From an uncultured Acidobacteriota bacterium (GTDB taxonomy: Bacteria; Acidobacteriota; Vicinamibacteria; Vicinamibacterales; SCN-69-37): a stretch of DNA of 64,000 nucleotides. Positions 21,357 through 63,166 of this stretch are shown in pieces (within the stretch, counting starts at the first letter, position 1; every line of letters starts with the position of its first letter). Below the pieces are notes generated by a model. The model had not been told where the DNA came from. It saw only the letters and a program-made list of their open reading frames with translations, and did no database searches. The stretch is from NCBI GenBank assembly GCA_963780855.1, contig CAWADF010000002.1:207100-271099 (forward strand), written 5' to 3'. A program made the position numbers and the translations under genes.

Positions 21357-24300
21357 CTAGTAGAAGTCGTGTGACGCGACCTCCGGCCCTTCATGCCGGA
21401 GCGCGTCCACACGATCGGCTTTGACCGAGACCGCGCCATCCTGATTCTGCAGCACGCCTTCGACCAGCAGATACGGCGCGTCGACGATCGTCCGCTTGTA
21501 CGCGCCGAACACGTCGGGCGTGACGATGACGTTGGCGATGCCGGTTTCGTCCTCGAGCGAGAGAAAGACAAAGCCCTTCGCGGTGCCGGGACGCTGGCGG
21601 ACGAGTACGGCGCCGGCGACGCGCACGCGCCGGCCCGCGCGCGCGCGCAGCAGATCGATCGCGCGCTGCACGCCGCGCGTCGCGAGTGAGGCGCGCAGGA
21701 ACGACATCGGATGCGGCCCAATCGTGAGGCCCGTCCCGTCGTAGTCCGCACGGACGCGATCGGGGAGGGACATGGCGGGCAGAGGAGAGCTCACGTCGGG
21801 CACTGGGCATTGGGCACTAAGCACTGGCGTTGGCGCTGGCGCCGGCTCAGCGTGATCCTCACCAATGCCCAATGCCCAATGCCCAATGCCTGATCCGTCT
21901 GTGTCCATCAACAACGGCCCGGCCGGCCGGCCCGCGCGCTCGGCCTGCCAGAGCGCGGATCGGCGATCGCCGCCGAGCGACGCGAGCGCGCCGATCTCCG
22001 CAAGCGTGCGCAATTCGTCCTGGCGCAGCCCGGCGCGCGCGACCAATTCGTCCAGGGATCGAAAGCGCATGAGATCAGGCACGAGGCATTGGGCGCTAGG
22101 CACTAGCATCGCACGCGTGTCACTCGCCAGTGCCGAATGCCTAATGCCTGGTGCCTGACTTTCTATCCTCTTCCCCACGTCATCTCTCAGCCCTCGTACG
22201 TACCGGAGTCCCAATCGAATCGTCCCGTCGTTTTGCACGACGCAATTCCACTTCGAGATCTGCACGTCAATCGGCGCGAAGCGCACGCCGTGGCGCTGCG
22301 CGTCCTTGACGAGCGTGGCCGGCGAGTAAAACCCCATCGGCTGGTTGTTGAGCAGCGCCGTGTAGAACGCCGCGGGGTAATGCGCTTTCAGATACGCGCT
22401 CGCGTAGACGATCAGCGCGAAGCTTGCCGCGTGCGATTCGGGAAACCCGTAGAGCGCGAACGACGTGATCGACAGCACGATGTCGTCGGCGGCCTGACCG
22501 GTGATGCCGTTCTTCGCCATGCCGTCGCGCAGCCGCTGTTCGATCTGCTGCATCCGCTTCACCGACCGCTTGAAACCCATCGCGCGCCGCAGCTCCTCCG
22601 CCTCACCGCCGGTGAAGCCGGCGACGACCATCGCCATCCGCAGCAGCTGCTCCTGGAACAGCGGCACGCCGAGCGTCCGCTCGAGCACCGGCTCGAGCGC
22701 CGGATGCGCGTAGGTCACCGGCTGGTCGCCCCGGCGGCGCGCCAGGTACGGATGCACCATCTTCCCGACGATCGGCCCGGGCCGGATGATCGCGACTTCG
22801 ACGACCAGATCGTAGAAGTGCTCCGGCTTGAGCCGCGGCAGCGTCGCCATCTGCGCGCGCGACTCCACCTGAAAGACGCCGATGGTGTCGGCGGCCTGCA
22901 GCATGCGATAGACGGCGGGGTCGTCGGGGGGAAGGTGCGCGAGATCGACACGATCAGGCCTCAGGCATTGGGCACCAGGCACTGGCAAGCGGGCATTGGG
23001 CATGAGGCATTGGGCACTCGACGCAGACAGCGGATCATCAGCCACTGCCTGATGCCTGACGCCCGATGCCTGCTCTTCTAGTGCCCGATGCCCAATGCCT
23101 AATGCCTGCTCTCCATTGACAATGACAAGCGCTTCTTCCAATGCCGCCATCATGCCCAGCCCCAGCAGATCGACCTTGATGATCCCGAGGTCCGCGCAGT
23201 CGTCCTTGTCCCACTGCACGACGACGCGGCCGGGCATCGACGCGTTTTCGAGCGGTACGATCTCGTCGAGCCGGCCCTGGCAGACGACCATCCCGCCCGA
23301 GTGCTGGCCCAAATGGCGCGGCAGGTCCTGCATCTGCTGCCACAACCTGGCGAAGAGTCGATACCGCTGGTCGTCGGGATCGAGGCCGGTCTCGCGCAGA
23401 TTGCGCGCGATCGTTTCTTCGGGATCGACGAACTCGAACTGGCTCATCAGCCGCGCCAGCCGGTCGATCTCTGCCGCGTCCAGGTCGAGCACCTTGCCGA
23501 CTTCACGCGTCGCGCTGCGGCCGCGATAGGTGATCACATTGGCGGTCATCGCGGCGCCGAGCGTGCCGTAGCGCTCGTACACGTACTGAATGACGCGCTC
23601 GCGCCGGTCGCCGCTCGGCAGATCGAGATCGATGTCCGGCCACTCGCCGCGCTCCTCCGACAGAAACCGCTCGAAGAGCAGCTCCATCCCCACCGGATCG
23701 ACGGCCGTGATGCCGAGCGCGTAGCACACGGCGCTATTGGCGGCCGACCCGCGCCCCTGCACGAGAATCCCCTGCTGCCGGCAGAAATTGACGAGGTCCC
23801 AGACGATGAGGAAGTAGCCGGCGAGGTCGAGCTTCTCGATCAGATCGAGCTCGCGCTGGATCTGTGCGCGGGCGCGGTCGTGATACGGCCGGTAGCGATC
23901 GCGCGCGCCGACCTGCGCGAGGCGCCGCAGGAACGACGCCTGCGTCTCGCCGTCGGGGACCGGGTAATCGGGAAACTTGTAGCCGAGATCGGCGAGCGTG
24001 AACTCGAGTTGCTCGGCGAGCGCCTCGGTGCCGGCGAGTGCCTGCGGATGATCCGAGAACAGCCGCGCCATGTGGTCGGGCGGTTTGAGATAACGCTCCG
24101 CGTTTGCCGTCAGCCGCCGCCCCGCCCGCGCGAGCGTCGTCTTGTGCCGCAGGCAGGTGAAGACATCGTAGAGCGGACGACCCTCGGGCGCCGCGAAGCG
24201 CACGCCGTTGGTGGCGACGAGCGGCACGCGGAACGCCGCCGACAAATCGACGAGCGATTGCAATGTCGTCTGCTCGTCGCGGCGGAAGTGGCGCTGCAGC

Positions 24301-24878
24301 TCGATCCACACGTTGCGCCGGCCGAACAGGCCGACGAGCCGATCGACGAGGCCGCCGACGCCGTGCCGACGCGCGTCGAGCGCCGACGACCCGACGATCG
24401 CCCGCAGCCCCGCGGTGTGGCCGGCGAAGTCGTCCAGATTGAGCCACGACTCGCCTTTCGGCGCGCGCAGCTTCGCGCGCGTGATGAGCCGGCAGAGGTT
24501 GCGATAGCCCTCGGCGGAGGCGACGAGGACAGGGAGGCTCCAGGCAGGCATTAGGCACTGGGCATTAGGCACTCGCATTGCACGCGCGTCACGCGCGTCA
24601 CTCGCTAATGCCTGATGCCTAGGGCCCAGTGCCTGCTCTCCAGTGCCCAATGCCCGCTCTCCAGTGCCCGCGCCTATCGTCAGTTCCGCGCCGACGATCG
24701 CCTTGATTCCCGCGGCGCGCGCGGCGCGATAGAACTGCGGCGCGCCGTAGACGCCGTCGCGATCGAGCAGCGCCATCGTGGGATAGCCGAGCGCGGCCGC
24801 CCGCTCGACGAGCGTCTCGGGCAGCGATGCGCCATCGAGAAACGAAAACGCCGACGCGGCGTGCAGTTCGATGTACAC
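21357..24878 (-). CDS. dnaE2: Error-prone DNA polymerase DnaE2 (ImuC), intact but carrying four in-frame repeat insertions
   Basis: 1173-aa ORF with PHP start MYIELHAASAFSFLDGAS, pol III alpha core (GVFQVESRAQMATLPRLKP, FYSPATLVKDAQRHG) and a C-terminal OB fold. Third gene of the imuA-imuB-dnaE2 cassette. Confidence 0.95.
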   Translation of the reverse strand: MYIELHAASAFSFLDGASLPETLVERAAALGYPTMALLDRDGVYGAPQFYRAARAAGIKAIVGAELTIGAGTGERALGTGEQALGPRHQALASDARDARAMRVPNAQCLMPAWSLPVLVASAEGYRNLCRLITRAKLRAPKGESWLNLDDFAGHTAGLRAIVGSSALDARRHGVGGLVDRLVGLFGRRNVWIELQRHFRRDEQTTLQSLVDLSAAFRVPLVATNGVRFAAPEGRPLYDVFTCLRHKTTLARAGRRLTANAERYLKPPDHMARLFSDHPQALAGTEALAEQLEFTLADLGYKFPDYPVPDGETQASFLRRLAQVGARDRYRPYHDRARAQIQRELDLIEKLDLAGYFLIVWDLVNFCRQQGILVQGRGSAANSAVCYALGITAVDPVGMELLFERFLSEERGEWPDIDLDLPSGDRRERVIQYVYERYGTLGAAMTANVITYRGRSATREVGKVLDLDAAEIDRLARLMSQFEFVDPEETIARNLRETGLDPDDQRYRLFARLWQQMQDLPRHLGQHSGGMVVCQGRLDEIVPLENASMPGRVVVQWDKDDCADLGIIKVDLLGLGMMAALEEALVIVNGEQALGIGHRALEEQASGVRHQAVADDPLSASSAQCLMPNARLPVPGAQCLRPDRVDLAHLPPDDPAVYRMLQAADTIGVFQVESRAQMATLPRLKPEHFYDLVVEVAIIRPGPIVGKMVHPYLARRRGDQPVTYAHPALEPVLERTLGVPLFQEQLLRMAMVVAGFTGGEAEELRRAMGFKRSVKRMQQIEQRLRDGMAKNGITGQAADDIVLSITSFALYGFPESHAASFALIVYASAYLKAHYPAAFYTALLNNQPMGFYSPATLVKDAQRHGVRFAPIDVQISKWNCVVQNDGTIRLGLRYVRGLRDDVGKRIESQAPGIRHSALASDTRAMLVPSAQCLVPDLMRFRSLDELVARAGLRQDELRTLAEIGALASLGGDRRSALWQAERAGRPAGPLLMDTDGSGIGHWALGIGEDHAEPAPAPTPVLSAQCPVPDVSSPLPAMSLPDRVRADYDGTGLTIGPHPMSFLRASLATRGVQRAIDLLRARAGRRVRVAGAVLVRQRPGTAKGFVFLSLEDETGIANVIVTPDVFGAYKRTIVDAPYLLVEGVLQNQDGAVSVKADRVDALRHEGPEVASHDFY
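21798..21896. repeat. GGCAYTGG-word palindrome inserted in frame in dnaE2 (insert A)
   Basis: GGGCACTGGGCATTGGGCACTAAGCACTGG ... CCAATGCCCAATGCCCAATGCCCAATGCC. Translated (minus) as SGIGHWALGIGEDH...VLSAQCPVPD. Confidence 0.65.
22077..22159. repeat. GGCAYTGG-word palindrome inserted in frame in dnaE2 (insert B)
   Basis: AGGCACGAGGCATTGGGCGCTAGGCACTAGCATCGCACGCGTGTCACTCGCCAGTGCCGAATGCCTAATGCCTGGTGCCTGAC. Translated as QAPGIRHSALASDTRAMLVPSAQCLVPD. Confidence 0.65.
22956..23108. repeat. GGCAYTGG-word palindrome inserted in frame in dnaE2 (insert C, about 150 bp)
   Basis: AGGCCTCAGGCATTGGGCACCAGGCACTGGCAAGCGGGCATTGGGCATGAGGCATTGGGCACT ... GCCTGATGCCTGACGCCCGATGCC..GTGCCCGATGCCCAATGCCTAATGCCTG. 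Translated as EQALGIGHRALEEQASGVRHQ...SAQCLMPNARLPVPGAQCLRP. Confidence 0.65.
24541..24671. repeat. GGCAYTGG-word palindrome inserted in frame in the dnaE2 PHP domain (insert D)
   Basis: CAGGCAGGCATTAGGCACTGGGCATTAGGCACTCGCATTGCACGCGCGTCACGCGCGTCACTCGCTAATGCCTGATGCC...CAGTGCCCAATGCCCGC. Its loop core GCACGCG.GTCACTCGC is shared with insert B. Confidence 0.65.
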
Positions 24879-27066: not shown

Positions 27067-27317
27067 GGAAATGGGGAAATGAGTGAAACGGGTGAATGGG
27101 TGAATGGGTGAGCGTGGAAATGGGTGAAACCGGTGAATGGAGGAAAGGGTGAATGGGAGGTGGGGAAATGGGTGAATGGGTGAGTGGGTGAATCGGAACG
27201 GGCGAGGCGTCATTCACTCATTCCCTCATTCCCTCCTTCACCCGTTTCACCCGTTTCACCCGTTTCACCCGTTTCACCCATTTCACCCATTTCCCCGTTT
27301 CACCCATTTCACGAATG
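27067..27317. repeat. About 250-bp imperfect palindrome of GGTGAAT/GGGTGAA words (arms about 128 and 105 nt)
   Basis: The left arm has degenerate 8-nt units (GGTGAATG GGTGAATG GGTGAGCG ...). Centre is GGAACGGGCGAGGCGTC. The right arm has 9-nt units (CCGTTTCAC x4, CCATTTCAC x3). Fills the divergent imuA/MFS intergenic region. Confidence 0.75.
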
Positions 27318-35860: not shown

Positions 35861-35954
35861 GGGAAACCGGTGAATTTGTGAATGAGGTGAATGAGTGAAT
35901 GCGGAGCATTCCGTGATTCACCCGTTTCACCCATTCACTAGTTCACCCGTTTAC
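35861..35954. repeat. Imperfect palindrome of GTGAAT words (same subfamily as 27067-27317)
   Basis: GGGGAAACCGGTGAATTTGTGAATGAGGTGAATGAGTGAATG - CGGAGCATTCCG - TGATTCACCCGTTTCACCCATTCACTAGTTCACCCGTTTAC. Shares the 18-mer TTCACCCGTTTCACCCAT with the 27.2-kb element. Lies between convergent glgC and sixA. Confidence 0.7.
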
Positions 35955-58589: not shown

Positions 58590-60472
58590 GGCGCGCCGTC
58601 ACGCCGCGATCAGGACGTGCGCGCGCGGCGCCGAGCTCCGTGAGGACCCGCTCGGCGGTTTCGGGCGAGCCGTGCAGCGACGTCATCTGCACGCCCTCCA
58701 CGCGGTCGCGCAGCCAGCGCGCGATCTCGACCGTCGCCGCCAGCGCCTCGTCCGCGGGACGCTCGGCGCTGCGCAGCCGATCGAGCAGCGCGTCGGCCAC
58801 CCGCACGCCGACGACCTCGCTCGCCAGGAACTCGGCCTGCCGCACGCTCTCGAGCGCCGCGACGCCCGCCAGCGACGGGCAGGCCGGTCGCACGTCAGCC
58901 GCGGCCAGACCGCGTCGAACGCCGTCGAGATCGAGCACGGGCGGCGTCACGAGGAACTCGGCGCCGGCCTCGACCTTGTGCGCGAGCCGCCGCCACTCGG
59001 CGTCGGGATTCGGCGCGAAACGGGTTGACGCGCGACGCCGATGTGGAACCGCGTCGGCGCGCCGATCGGCTGGCCGCCGATGTCGAGCCCGTGGTTGAGC
59101 CGCGGCGACCATGTTGGTGAGGCCGATCGGCGTCGACGTCGAAGACCGAGGTCGCGTCCGCGTAGGTGCCCTGCGGCGCCGGGTTGCCCGTCGTCAGCAG
59201 CACGTTGCGGAGGCCCATCGCGTGCGCGCCGACGAGATCCGACTGCATGCCCGATCAGCGTGCGATCGCGGCACGAGTAGTGCAGCAGCGTCTCGACGCC
59301 GGCCTTGCTGCTCGATCAGCGACGCGAGCGCCAGCGCGCTCGCGCGCGCGCCGGCCTTCGGGTAGTCCGGCACGTTGACGGCCATCGCGCCGAGGTCGCT
59401 GGAACCGGCGCGCCTGCGCACGACGGCGGCCGCCAGATCGAGTCCGCGCGGCGCGGCGACCTCGGCGAGCACGACGAACTGCCGGTCGGCGAACGCGCGC
59501 GCCAGCGCGCGACTTCTCGCGCCGATCGACGGCCAGCGGCGTCGGCGGCCGGCGCCTCGACGACGACCGCCGGCGCGGGCCGGCGCGCGCCGGCGGGCGC
59601 CATCGCGCGCACGGCCAGCGCTGATCTGGCGCATGTGATCGGGCGTCGTGCCGCAGCAGCCGCCGACGAGCCGCACGCCGGCCGCGATGAACCGGCGCGC
59701 GTAGCTCGCCATGTACTCGGGCGAACCCAGATACAGGTTGCGGCCGTCGACGTCGCGCGGGCGGCCGGCGTTCGGCTGCGCGGACAGCCGCGCGCGCGTG
59801 AGCCGCGCCATGCGCTCGATCGTCTCGAGCATCGCCGCCGGCCCGACGCTGCAGTTGACGCCGATCACGTCGGCGCCGGCCCGCTCGAGCTCGGGCGCGA
59901 ACGTCTCGGGCGGCGTGCCGTCGAGACTGTTGCCGTCGTCGTCGGTCGTCATCTGCGCGACGATCGGCAGCGGCGACACGCGCGCGCACGGCGCGAATGG
60001 CGGCCTTCAACTCGTTCAGGTCGCGGAACGTCTCGAGGATGAACAGATCCACGCCGCCTTCGGCCAGCGCCGCGGCCTGCTCGCGAAAGGCGGCCTCGGC
60101 TTCGTCGACGCCCGTCTGGCCCCACGGCTCGATGCGGACGCCGAGCGGGCCGATCGATCCGGCGACCCAGGCGGCGTCGCGCGCCGCGTGCCGGGCGATG
60201 CGCGCGCCCTGGACGTTGATCGCGCGCGACCTGGTCGGACCAGGCCGAAGTTGGCGAGCTTGAAGCGGTTGGCGCCGAACGTGTTCGTCTCGAGCACGTC
60301 GGCGCCGGCGCGCACGTAGTCGCGATGGACGCTCGGCGACCAGGTCGGGCTGCGTCAGGTTCAGCTCGTCGAAGCAGCGATTGAGGAAGATGCCGCGGCG
60401 CGTACAGCATCGTGCCCATCGCGCCGTCACACACGAGCACGCGGGCATCGAGCGCGTCGAGAAAGGAGGGGG
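58582..60472 (-). CDS. Bifunctional homocysteine S-methyltransferase / 5,10-methylenetetrahydrofolate reductase (YitJ-like), heavily frameshifted; start approximate
   Basis: FLDALDARVLVCDGAMGTMLY, VHRDYVRAGADVLETNTFGAN, DLFILETF, VGVNCSVGP, VRLVGGCCGTTPDHM; then the MTHFR half FVVLAEVAAPRG, HYSCRDR, GLRNVLLTTGNP, EFLVTPPVLD. Confidence 0.8.
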
Positions 60473-60478
60473 CACGCT

Positions 60479-60620
60479 GGATCTACAAGGTTCTACAGGG
60501 TTCACGGGTCACGGGTCACCAGGTCGGCATGTTCTGAGCCAGCGAGTCGCTGAATCGCCTCCGCACATGTCGCAGAACCTGGAGAACCGTAGAACCTGTA
60601 GACCCGTGAACTTGTAGATC
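60479..60620. repeat. Imperfect palindrome of GTTCTAC/GTTCACG/GTCACGG words with perfect 10-bp termini GATCTACAAG
   Basis: GATCTACAAGGTTCTACAGGGTTCACGGGTCACGGGTCACC ... centre with palindrome CAGCGAGTCGCTG ... GAGAACCGTAGAACCTGTAGACCCGTGAACTTGTAGATC. Confidence 0.7.
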
Positions 60621-60629
60621 TCGTTGTCG

Positions 60630-61069
60630 CTACTTCCCTGTCGCCGCGGGCACGAGCAGGTCCTGCTTGTCCCAGATGAAGTCTTCGTTGCTGTAGACGG
60701 CCAGCTCGTAGTCCTTGCCCATGAAGATCGCCGACACCGGGCAGGCTTCTTCGCAGTAGCCGCAGAAGATGCAGCGCGTCTTGTGAATCTGGTAGATCGA
60801 CGCGTAGCGCGGCCCGGCCTGGACGGTGCCGTCGTTTTCGGCCGGCTCGAGGTAGATCGCGTCGGCGGGACACGCGACGGCGCACAGCCCGCACGCGACG
60901 CACTTCTCCAGGCCGTTCTCGTCCCGCATCAGCACCTGCTTGCCGCGGTACTTCGGGAACACCGGGCACCTTTTCGGCCGGATAGTTCACCGTGTTCGGC
61001 CTGCTTGAAGATGTGCTTGAACGTCGTGGCGAAGCCGATCAGGAACGGCCGGATCATGGGGGCAATCAT
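60630..61069 (-). CDS. nuoI: NuoI-like 2x[4Fe-4S] ferredoxin subunit of NADH:quinone oxidoreductase, two frameshifts near the 5' end
   Basis: MIAPMIRPFLIGFATTFKHIFK..PNTVNYPAEKVP..FPKYRGKQVLMRDENGLEKCVACGLCAVACP...CIFCGYCEEACP. No other nuo genes flank it. Confidence 0.75.
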
Positions 61070-61077
61070 ATCAAACG

Positions 61078-61175
61078 TGCCTGGTGCCAAGTGCCGCGTG
61101 CTTGGTGCGGTGCCCAGTGCGTGCTTGGTGCCGTGCTCGGTGCCGTGCTTGGTGCCGTGCTTGGTGCCGTGCCCT
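61078..61175. repeat. Left inverted arm (about 100 nt) of GGTGCC/GTGCTT words flanking the four-helix-bundle gene
   Basis: GTGCCTGGTGCCAAGTGCCGCGTGCTTGGTGCGGTGCCCAGTGCGTGCTTGGTGCCGTGCTCGGTGCCGTGCTTGGTGCCGTGCTTGGTGCCGTGCC. Confidence 0.7.
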
Positions 61176-61248
61176 GCGGGTCCTGTGTCCTGTGCAATGA
61201 CTGCGCCTTGCTGAGTGCTGAGCTGGCGCCTTGCTCATCGTTCATCAC

Positions 61249-61640
61249 TCATCCACGATCCGAGCCTGGACCGAGCGTCCTGTCGTCCGGATCTGGTGTG
61301 CTTCGGAGATCGCGATGGAGGGCGGTGAGCGACGCCATCGCCTTGCCGGCGAGCGCGTCCAGTGTTTCAGCTTCGTCGCTGGTGATAAAGCCAGACTCCT
61401 GCGCCTCGATGAGGTGATCCATGATCTCTCCCAGTGACGCGTGACTGGACGTCAGGGCATCGCCGCCATGCCCGCAACTCCCGCGGCTGCCTCGCTCCCA
61501 CGGATTCGTCCCCTGCAAGAATCGCCGCGGTCGTCGGACAGCGATTCTTGCGCTGTCGCGCGCGACGCGTGCAGTTCCTGCGATCGCGGAAGGATTCGGT
61601 GTCTGCAGAATCTTGCAACCAGTCGCGCGCGACACCGCGC
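61249..61640 (-). CDS. Four-helix-bundle protein (23S rRNA intervening-sequence protein family, PF05635-like), frameshifted; start approximate
   Basis: C-terminal half SLGEIMDHLIEAQESGFITSDEAETLDALAGKAMASLTALHRDL fits the GSxxE...(g)yi...L...L pattern of the family. Upstream ESFRD and an AEG-like segment are scattered over frames. Confidence 0.4.
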
Positions 61641-61716
61641 ACCGCGCGATGTCTCGACTCAGGGATCGAGACCAGGCACTCTTGGGGCAACGGCACCGAC
61701 CCCGCCCGCCCGCCGG

Positions 61717-61815
61717 GGCACCAAGCACCGCACGCGACACGGCACCGCCCAGGCACGGCACCAGGCACCGCACCAGGCACGCGCACCCGGCACCTGGCAC
61801 CCGGCACCTGGCACC
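61717..61815. repeat. Right inverted arm (about 100 nt), complement of the 61078-61175 word array
   Basis: GGCACCAAGCACCGCACGCGACACGGCACCGCCCAGGCACGGCACCAGGCACCGCACCAGGCACGCGCACCCGGCACCTGGCACCCGGCACCTGGCACC. Confidence 0.7.
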
Positions 61816-61845
61816 ATCTCGCAGTGCTATATTGATCCTGGCCTG

Positions 61846-63166
61846 ATGTCCCAAGAGGCCCGGTCGCTTTCTGCCGAGCAGTTCCTGCTCACGACACTGG
61901 TCGTCAAGCTGGCCGTCGCGGCCGCGCTGGCGACGTGCTGGTGCGTTTCCGCTGGTTCCGCCGCATCCTGCTCACCGAGAAACGAGACTGGCCCGAGCGG
62001 CTCATCTTCGCCGCCGGACTCGGGCTGCCCCTCGTCGTCGGCGTCGCCTGCCGGCTGCTGCTGCACTACGACGCCGCGGACCTGTCGCTCCCCGGCTCGT
62101 TCCTGGCCGGCCTGATCGCCGGGCCCCTACGCGGGCGCGCTGGTCGGCGCCGCGGTCGGCCTTCCGCCGCTCTTCGCCGGTGAATGGGCGGCCCTGCCCT
62201 TCGCGGTCGGGTGCGGATTTGCCGGCGGCGGCCTGCGGGAGATCTGTCCGAAAGAAGAGATCTGGCGATTCACGCCGTTCTTCGTGACGAAGCTGCACGA
62301 GTCGGCGTGGCGTCTGGTTCGCGCGTTCACCCTCGACTGGCAGGTCATCCTCGTGAGCGCGCCGGTCGCCGCTGGAGGTGCTGCGCCAGACCATCGCGCA
62401 CCGCTACCCGCTCCGGCTGTTCGACTTCGAGCCCACGACCTGGTGGCTGCGGCTGCTGGTGCTGCTCGACACAGTGCTCGGCGTCGCGATCCCCATCAAG
62501 ATCTGGAACAGCGCCCGGATCGAGCATCGCCTCGCGGAGCAGGAGAAGCTGCTGATGGCGGCCCGCGTCGAGGCGCTGGCCAATCAGATCAACCCGCACT
62601 TCCTGTTCAACACGCTGACGTCGATCTCGTCGCTCATCCGGTCGAAGCCTGAGACGGCGCGCATGCTCATCGTCAAGCTGTCGGCGCTGCTGCGGCGCCT
62701 GCTGCGCAGCCAGGAACACTTCGTGACGCTGCGTGAGGAGCTGGACGCCGTGGACGAGTATCTCGACATCGAGCGCGTGCGTTTCGGCCCCAGCCTCGTC
62801 GTCGAAAAGAGATCGACGACGCGAGCCTGGAGGTGGTCGTGCCGAGCATGATCCTGCAGCCGCTGGTCGAGAACTCGATCAAGCACGGACTGGGCCGCAA
62901 GGTCGGCGAAGGCCGCATCACGATTCGATCGTCACGCCGCGCCGGACACGCCGTCATCGAGGTCATCGACAACGGCGTCGGCATCCCGAGCGACCGGCTC
63001 GAATCGACGTCTCGAGCACGGCATCGGCCTGCGCAACGTCAACGAACGGCTGAGCGTGATTTACGGCGCGAACTATGCTCTCAAGCTGAACAGCGTGCCC
63101 GGCGAGGGCACGTCGGCGCGCATCGAGATCCCGGAGCTCCTGGTGTCGGAACGGGCCAGCGCATGA
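61846..63166 (+). CDS. LytS/YehU-type sensor histidine kinase (5TM-Lyt plus His_kinase/HATPase), about 5 frameshifts
   Basis: Multi-TM N-terminus. INPHFLFNTLTSISSLI (the H-box of LytS-type kinases). LREELDAVDEYLDIERVRFG, ILQPLVENSIKHG, DNGVGIP, GIGLRNVNERL. Confidence 0.8.

Follow-up and report, generated by a model that had tools for sequence, protein, structure and literature searches.

To our knowledge, neither a function nor an origin has been established, since the early 1990s, for the open reading frames (ORFs) found inside the intervening sequences (IVSs) of 23S rRNA. A locus of an uncultured Acidobacteriota bacterium (Vicinamibacterales, SCN-69-37) raises the question of whether the same arrangement, a gene held in the loop of a long stem, also exists outside rRNA. 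It lies in a stretch of 64,000 nucleotides (nt), hereafter the window (assembly GCA_963780855.1, contig CAWADF010000002.1, positions 207,100 to 271,099 of the forward strand; coordinates below are those of the window). Between divergent lytS-like and nuoI-like genes, two inverted arrays of short words enclose, on the minus strand, what is left of a four-helix-bundle (4HB) gene. With a probability of roughly 70%, we consider that an IVS-type hairpin cassette, self-contained and made of five parts, has decayed here. In the direction of the gene, such a cassette would comprise a G/T-rich array of tandem 6 to 9 nt words, a leader of ~100 to 250 nt with GCAG-N3-CTGC motifs, a sigma-54 (−24/−12) promoter ending 11 to 12 nt before the ATG, with a predicted almost leaderless mRNA, a PF05635 four-helix-bundle gene of 125 to 135 amino acids (aa), and a C/A-rich array in inverted orientation. 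Arms and leader are intact in the window copy; the promoter, the third codon and the N-terminal coding part are damaged.

The inverted arrays and the gene remnant between them

Read on the strand of the gene, the 5′ arm (61717..61815, minus strand, on the lytS side) is an array of GGTGCC/GGTGCY words (GGCACC.. on the plus strand), and the 3′ arm (61077..61175, minus strand) is made of GGCACC/AAGCAC words (GGTGCC GTGCTT on the plus strand). The latter is separated by 4 nt from a conserved TATGAT box and by 18 nt from the nuoI-like start codon (ATG 61058-61056). Both arms were recognised by Tandem Repeats Finder, inverted pairs and alignment; for the 5′ arm, pairing in the RNA fold was also used, and the outer 30 nt of the 3′ arm are orthologous to the arm of a related locus, L083, described below. 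Tandem Repeats Finder reported 6.4 copies of a 12-nt unit, CGTGCTTGGTGC, at 61097-61172, and units of 7, 12 and 14 nt at 61741-61816. In a repeat search, many inverted pairs linked the two arrays, e.g. 34 nt at 85% and 52 nt at 79%. Smith-Waterman alignment of 61050-61200 with the reverse complement of 61690-61840 gave a score of 40, compared to 6 for the direct comparison of the two regions, 10.5 +/−1.7 (maximum 17) for 300 dinucleotide shuffles, and at most 15.5 for 60 positional controls taken elsewhere in the window. The best arms by alignment were 61077-61168 and 61717-61814, 548 nt apart. Folding the minus strand of 61070-61825 as RNA brought the arms together in a ~100-bp stem (−412 kcal/mol, z = −9.8), and a z of −7.7 was obtained when the element was folded as DNA. 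The mirrored arrays of about 100 nt described in the original prediction, made from the letters of this DNA, were thus confirmed. The G+T content of the 5′ arm is 0.69; in the GGTGCC/GTGCTT units the longest G run is 2, too short for a quadruplex-forming repeat, which was taken to need tracts of 3 or more G in four or more successive units.

That original prediction had also placed the enclosed ORF in the 4HB family. Its peptide was located in minus frame 2. Direct Pfam and NCBIfam scans of the three minus-strand frames detected the C-terminal part only, and all matches were below threshold: the window peptide alone scored 13.8 bits against PF05635 (cut-off 33.8) and 15.7 bits against TIGR02436 (cut-off 24). 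A word-indexed homology search with this single peptide returned the source genome's own 57-aa gene call as its sole match. Exhaustive phmmer search yielded one true relative, P0003 (77 aa, 45% identity, STPDP tail also present); the other matches were repeat proteins and were discarded as spurious. Starting from the window peptide and P0003, a two-sequence profile retrieved 105 proteins; almost all of them carry the PF05635 annotation, are 124 to 135 aa long and come from Acidobacteriota/Vicinamibacterales. With the subfamily hidden Markov model (HMM), the window was matched at 61285-61443, over profile positions 73-125, with an E value of 5.6e-10. Full-length relatives (P0054, P0013 and the L083 protein) reach 63 to 70 bits against PF05635, above threshold, and the subfamily profile matches PDB 2GSC, the solved pentameric four-helix bundle XCC0516, with an E value of 8e-12. 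Judged by these sequence comparisons, the assignment of the C-terminal half to the PF05635/TIGR02436 family is sound. The family claim therefore holds for the C-terminal 53 residues, which are homologous, but the window peptide misses the curated Pfam and TIGRFAM cut-offs.

This half occupies 61249..61443 (minus strand, by HMM and tblastn), with profile positions 73-125 followed by an 11-residue tail and a stop codon at 61249-61251. Profile positions 1-72, which cover helices 1-2 and the NIAEG motif of helix 2, were found in no frame by the subfamily HMM with all filters off. The proposal that frameshifts concealed a full-length gene was therefore not upheld, the N-terminal 72 positions being missing in all six frames. 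A remnant of the start was recognised at 61452..61460 (minus strand) by comparison with L043 and L046 and by frame-0 translation: it reads ATG CCC TGA where relatives have ATG CCC TGG (MPW), so that codon 3 has become a stop. This ATG stands ~7 codons ahead of profile position 73 (the 'ASLGE' segment), in a different frame from the C-terminal half. The latter keeps 6 of 8 invariant columns but only ~4 of 11 nearly invariant ones. The window copy thus seems to have undergone an internal deletion of ~65 codons (helices 1-2 with the NIAEG motif), to carry a stop at codon 3, and to have lost the −24 GG of its promoter. Because of these three lesions and of the changed conserved columns, it reads as a decayed remnant, or at best a short form.

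Comparable truncations were found elsewhere. Independent internal deletions in P0007, P0010, P0051, P0067, P0074, P0012 and P0003 have fused the first 5 to 25 residues to the 'RIAKASE' helix. Several of these deletions are in frame, the C-terminal half is kept, and P0067 is present on 31 contigs. Such proteins may represent a recurrent short form rather than random decay. For annotation, short calls of 57 to 77 aa are to be read as remnants, and ORFs such as the one of 201 aa called through an array as artefacts: at a G+C content of 69.5% for the window, long ORFs are expected in every frame, and this 201-aa ORF, which runs across the right array, is no sign of a gene.

The ~250 nt of the interior that lie upstream of the remnant look like a non-coding regulatory leader, not an N-terminal coding half. 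Four features were identified there by sequence. The motif TTGCAAGATTCTGCAG (GCA-N6-TGC; 61604..61619, minus strand), which lies ~140 nt upstream of the remnant ATG, is reminiscent of an upstream activator site. The palindrome GCAGGAACTGC (GCAG-N3-CTGC; 61571..61581, minus strand) follows at ~105 nt from the same codon. Next comes a perfect 11-bp hairpin, GCAAGAATCGC..GCGATTCTTGC (61515..61551), paired in both the RNA and DNA folds. Finally, AGCCGCGGGAGTTGCG (61473..61488, minus strand) is a putative remnant of a −24/−12 promoter of the sigma-54 type, in which the −24 GG is GC, and which ends 12 nt before the ATG. The succession of AGCCGCGGGAGTTGCG, 12 nt and ATG CCC TGA aligns with TGGCGCGGGAGTTGCC, 11 nt and ATG CCC TGG at L043.

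The same layout around related genes

From 560 confirmed relatives, a scan of one genome per species gave 80 loci. For each, the 350 nt upstream and downstream of the gene were compared as inverted repeats, with flanks shifted by 1.2 kb as a control. Inverted word arrays flank the gene in 54 of the 80 loci, mostly of Acidobacteriota, with scores of 20 to 82 compared to at most 16 for the shifted controls. Two further relatives that were found independently, L001 and L083, are also bracketed by arms; in L001, on the contig of P0003, a GGTGCC-type array is followed by promoter and ATG, a truncated gene and an inverted array. On finished plasmids from bacteria in culture, all four of the genes examined that are annotated 'four helix bundle' or 'S23 ribosomal protein' are bracketed in the same way, by arrays of GGGAAAA (Nostoc), GGGTGTA (Calothrix), AAAGGGA (Geminocystis) or GGTTYAA (Riemerella). 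In the cyanobacterial and Riemerella plasmid copies the arms stand directly against the gene, and leave no room for an enhancer and a promoter. The arms are tandem word arrays, and the word varies by locus (GGTGCGG, GGTTCAN, TGAATGG, GTTATTA, GTGCTTA). No match to rRNA or to any Rfam family was obtained at threshold in the window or in 40 related cassette loci. The IVS-like layout announced in the original prediction, a stem with an ORF in its loop, is therefore well supported, as is its intergenic position between the nuoI-like and LytS-like genes.

The G/T-rich arm comes first in 52 of the 54 armed loci. A link between this polarity and gene direction was considered and dropped: a palindrome has the same polarity on both strands, so that G/T-first is a property of the palindrome class and not of the direction of the gene. 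At L058, a Hyphomicrobiales metagenome-assembled genome, the 4HB gene has strong direct repeats on its two sides (score 74, with an inverted score of 9).

The promoter remnant of the window has counterparts in these loci. The motif YGGCAC-N5-TTGCW ends 8 to 16 nt before the ATG in 50 of 77 loci, with a mode at 11-12 nt (37 loci), and was found 0 times in a control region 250 nt further upstream. In 49 of the 50 loci with the motif, a T precedes the −12 GC, though this was not demanded by the filter. By consensus, the motif corresponds to the canonical sigma-54 −24/−12 pattern, and its position predicts an almost leaderless mRNA. Motifs of the form GCA-N4-6-TGC occur in 21 of 29 long leaders, 80 to 130 nt upstream, at 5.7 per kb compared to 1.1 per kb in the background (five-fold), and GCAG-N3-CTGC is enriched 9-fold in leaders. 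The GCA-N4-6-TGC motifs sit where an enhancer site would be, and are candidate activator sites on the strength of their consensus. If this is correct, Acidobacteriota should possess a sigma-54 regulon made up of such cassettes, their mRNAs being almost without leaders. A search of the window for an enhancer-binding protein motif gave a spurious frame match and nothing else. In the leaders of L010 and L021, an extra C/A-rich array of ..CTTAGGCACC.. words stands between the 5′ arm and the promoter, which suggests nested or composite elements.

Arms and cargo were compared between loci. Paralogous cassettes within one genome are 46 to 64% identical and have different words. The more similar the cargo, the more repeated arm 6-mers two loci have in common: the share is 0.03 at 30-40% identity and 0.5-0.9 at 70% or more. 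We conclude that arms and cargo are usually inherited together.

The history of the site itself was followed in 80 relatives of the adjacent nuoI-like gene. The closest, L083, is 86.7% identical at the DNA level over nuoI and the outer 30 nt of the arm. It contains an intact 123-aa PF05635 gene between arms of GTGCY words, in the orientation opposite to that of the window copy. Its product is 38% identical to the C-terminal half of the window, which itself is 45 to 49% identical to cassettes elsewhere. The opposite orientation and the lower identity indicate that the cargo at this site was replaced or acquired independently. Nucleotide comparison of the window interior with the 80 cassette loci and L083 revealed similarity in the arms and nowhere else. 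In ~9 relatives that are more distant, the same spot is taken by ORF-less palindromes whose loops are short and whose words are unrelated, and ~60 relatives have none. The spot lies 16 to 40 nt upstream of the nuoI-like start (L082-L161), between the divergent lytS-like and nuoI-like genes, and adjoins the conserved TATGAT box. It is a hot spot, at which palindromes of unrelated words were gained independently in ~11 of 75 lineages; in some of them the C/A-rich arm is the first.

Origin of the element and rival explanations

In our favoured scheme, the cassette would be inherited and moved as a unit. Its arms would pair when single-stranded, and transcripts reading through from outside would form a long double-stranded stem. 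Cutting of this stem by RNase III, as in 23S rRNA IVSs, would permit a low-cost residence between or within genes. The cassette's own promoter would transcribe the gene and the 3′ arm only. The arrays could grow or shrink by slippage and act as recombination handles, by which the cargo would be inverted, replaced or lost. The 4HB protein, a relative of the nucleic-acid-binding Avd, the accessory protein of diversity-generating retroelements (DGRs), probably binds the arrays or their RNA. In the window, what remains of the element probably does no more than form a large hairpin between the divergent lytS-like and nuoI-like genes.

Several observations weigh against this cassette scheme. At the threshold used, 26 of the 80 loci had no arms. 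Since the promoter is inside the loop, the cassette's own transcript carries the 3′ arm only and is unable to form the hairpin, which is then possible only in read-through RNA or in single-stranded DNA. Arm mismatches have no G-U wobble bias on either strand (104 versus 127, with 267 transversions), and there is therefore no sign of selection on the stem at the RNA rather than the DNA level. Loop sizes across all loci are bimodal, at most 150 nt or 340 to 800 nt with no intermediates, so that cargo was gained or lost in one step and not eroded; cargo loss was not gradual. The promoter and activator-site calls are consensus matches, no more. Lastly, ordinary genes of the window assembly contain indels, and if a single base was miscalled on the way from the ATG to the C-terminal half, the apparent pseudogene would be a short form of 70 aa.

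This last point leads to the two readings in which the gene is less damaged than it looks. A working short form of ~60 to 70 aa, made of helices 3-4 and the STPDP tail, with the frame break as an assembly error, would be in keeping with these indels, with a C-terminal half still recognisable at 5.6e-10, with the in-frame deletion variants that join the N-terminus to the RIAKASE helix elsewhere (P0007, P0010, P0051, P0067, P0074), among them P0067 on its 31 contigs, and with L001, which retains promoter, ATG and the same C-terminal half. However, GC for the essential −24 GG and TGA as codon 3 are both substitutions and not indels; 2 of the 8 invariant and ~7 of the 11 nearly invariant C-terminal columns are changed, and P0067 itself no longer reaches Pfam. 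We regard a working short form as quite unlikely. That the full-length gene is present and broken by frameshifts, as first proposed, is hardly credible. Frameshifts do affect ordinary genes of the window, and tblastn with P0054 extended weakly through the upstream region in one frame, an extension now taken as chance similarity over the leader. Against this, positions 1-72 of the subfamily HMM are missing from every frame with the filters off, and the upstream region is filled with leader motifs, the promoter remnant and a start only ~7 codons before the C-terminal half.

Two other readings concern the arms. Word-array palindromes could arise alone at hot spots, 4HB genes then inserting into their loops. 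The unrelated ORF-less palindromes of ~9 lineages at the same nuoI-upstream spot, the outer arm that the window and L083 have in common around different cargo in opposite orientation, the bimodal loop sizes, and the 70 to 75 inverted heptamer-array pairs described in Xanthomonas without any gene (PMC4692102) all speak for such an order of events. It leaves aside the co-divergence of arm words with cargo identity, and the restriction of Acidobacteriota cassette arms to the GGTGC and GGTTC classes, unlike the window's ORF-less palindromes; no conserved cargo termini or target duplications were noticed either, without a systematic search for them. We see insertion into ready-made palindromes as possible, if rather unlikely. 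Alternatively, the arrays could work as double-stranded DNA, as iteron-like sites that control the sigma-54 promoter and are bound by the 4HB protein or an enhancer-binding protein, the hairpin being incidental. An internal promoter of a type needing an upstream activator, arrays placed 20 to 250 nt upstream, the missing wobble signature and an own transcript without the 5′ arm would all suit this role. It would leave unexplained why a second, inverted array always lies 3′ of the stop codon and why ORF-less palindromes with loops of 15 to 40 nt are common, and the cyanobacterial and Riemerella plasmid arms, which abut the gene, have no space for enhancer and promoter. We hold it to be very unlikely, and retain the decayed cassette as the best description of the window element.

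Known elements and neighbouring palindromes

The nearest known system is that of the 23S rRNA IVSs with an S23p/PF05635 ORF, found in Coxiella burnetii, Leptospira, Brucella and Xanthomonas (PMC4990558). In the Coxiella IVS, the loop contains a decaying S23p ORF, the terminal stem of 28 bp is cleaved by RNase III, and tandem GACAGAT heptamers are present in variable number (PMC4990558). The window element resembles these IVSs by its 4HB ORF in the loop of a stem of terminal inverted repeats, by tandem words beside the ORF (heptamers in the IVSs), by the ORF, which is often decaying in IVSs, and by its size (IVSs, ~430 to 760 nt). It differs in being intergenic, and not in helix 25 or 45 of 23S rRNA, and in having arms that are arrays of ~100 nt instead of a 28-bp stem. 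The Acidobacteriota subfamily moreover has its own promoter of the sigma-54 type in the loop. In a literature search that was thin on subscription journals, no report linked PF05635 genes outside rRNA to inverted arrays or to sigma-54, and within that coverage the hairpin-plus-gene layout has so far been described only inside ribosomal RNA genes. The window copy looks like an ordinary decayed member of a class that is IVS-like and outside rRNA, which would make the old question of IVS ORFs testable. With the same stem-loop layout outside rRNA in Acidobacteriota, cyanobacteria, Bacteroidota and Alphaproteobacteria, the rRNA case would fall within a broader class of elements, many copies of which are experimentally accessible, e.g. 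on Nostoc and Riemerella plasmids.

Tandem heptamers are also known without a gene, as in the STRR repeats (short tandemly repeated repetitive sequences, GGGGAYT) of Nostoc and Anabaena. Rehm et al. reported 70 to 75 GGGAATC array pairs in convergent orientation in Xanthomonas, as well as heptamer repeats in Nostoc, and connected neither with a gene (PMC4692102). Like the cassette arms, these are tandem 7-nt intergenic words, often arranged as a convergent pair in which the G-rich strand leads whichever strand is read, as in the 52 of 54 cassette loci above. They differ in that the published description is of simple repeats that form quadruplexes and have no gene between them, whereas the window words have no GGG and the window arrays enclose a 4HB remnant. 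A protein family would thereby be linked to heptamer-array palindromes formerly treated as mere simple repeats.

The contrast between many gene-less palindromes per genome and a few copies linked to a repeat-flanked protein gene recalls the repetitive extragenic palindromic (REP) sequences, their REPIN forms and the associated RAYT transposases. However, the cargo here is a 4HB protein and not a tyrosine (HUH) transposase: Pfam and NCBIfam scans and the subfamily HMM gave no transposase match for it. The arms are also copy-specific word arrays instead of one conserved palindrome. As for Avd (PDB 4DWL), it is a homologous pentameric four-helix-bundle protein acting with a structured nucleic acid, and PF05635 is recognised as the Avd family of DGRs (PMC10053308). 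With Avd, the same family supplies the essential partner of the DGR reverse transcriptase. Unlike in a DGR, no reverse transcriptase is present among the identified genes flanking the element, and no pair of template and variable repeats was noticed. According to a figure legend in a CRISPR survey, '23S rRNA IVP' is newly associated with CRISPR adaptation modules or arrays (PMC10910872). Word arrays such as those flanking the 4HB genes might be what the CRISPR array finders detected.

These comparisons allow a wider proposal, which we put forward as a speculation and consider unlikely. PF05635 genes and inverted word arrays would form one widespread, unrecognised class of semi-autonomous hairpin cassettes, of which the 23S IVSs would be a special case landed in rRNA. 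Gene-less heptamer palindromes (the Xanthomonas GGGAATC pairs, the cyanobacterial STRR and those of the present genome) would be non-autonomous offspring. The word-binding factor by which the arrays are built, maintained or moved would be the 4HB protein, in the role that RAYT plays for REPINs.

For the window itself, the original prediction had gone further and suggested that the element was possibly the master form of the palindrome family, with words related to the GGCAYTGG subfamily found in dnaE2. Neither suggestion was borne out. GGTGC(N) and GGTTC(N) words dominate Acidobacteriota cassette arms, and the GGTGCC of the window element is common to 10 cassettes, whereas the ORF-less palindromes of the window are built of GGCAYTG, GAAGTTC, GGGTGAA and GTCCAGG words, rare or absent in cassette arms. 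Moreover, GGCAC is placed in the opposite arm, as seen from the centre. Since the word classes differ, the element, with its GGTGCC/GTGCTT words, is not the source of these palindromes.

Of the genes around the element, those identified are a methionine-synthase-like (S-methyl_trans), a nuoI-like and a LytS-like gene and a LytTR response regulator. The nuoI-like ferredoxin gene (60630-61058) and the LytS-like kinase gene (61846-63000) are each split into several reading frames, which points to assembly indel errors or to real decay; L083 holds an intact nuoI reading. Just downstream of the nuoI-like gene, at 60470-60620, a second word-array palindrome was found (TCTACAG/GTTCACGG words, loop of ~50 nt), so that this small gene is bracketed by two palindromes.

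Rickettsia palindromic elements are palindromic repeats tolerated in unusual places. Among the other palindromes of the window, those in the dnaE2 gene offer a likeness to them, with no sequence relationship. At 21357-24878 (minus strand), an uninterrupted ORF of 1173 aa encodes a DnaE2-type polymerase with all domains (PHP, NTPase, finger, HHH, OB), and holds four in-frame GGCAYTG palindromes, at 24546-24669, 22962-23106, 22077-22149 and 21798-21890, located between or within domains. At 27070-27312 there is a very large palindrome without an ORF, built of GGGTGAAT words and with ~120-nt arms, and at 35869-35949 a smaller one of the same words. This GGGTGAAT word class also flanks the 4HB gene of Pseudaminobacter (L075).

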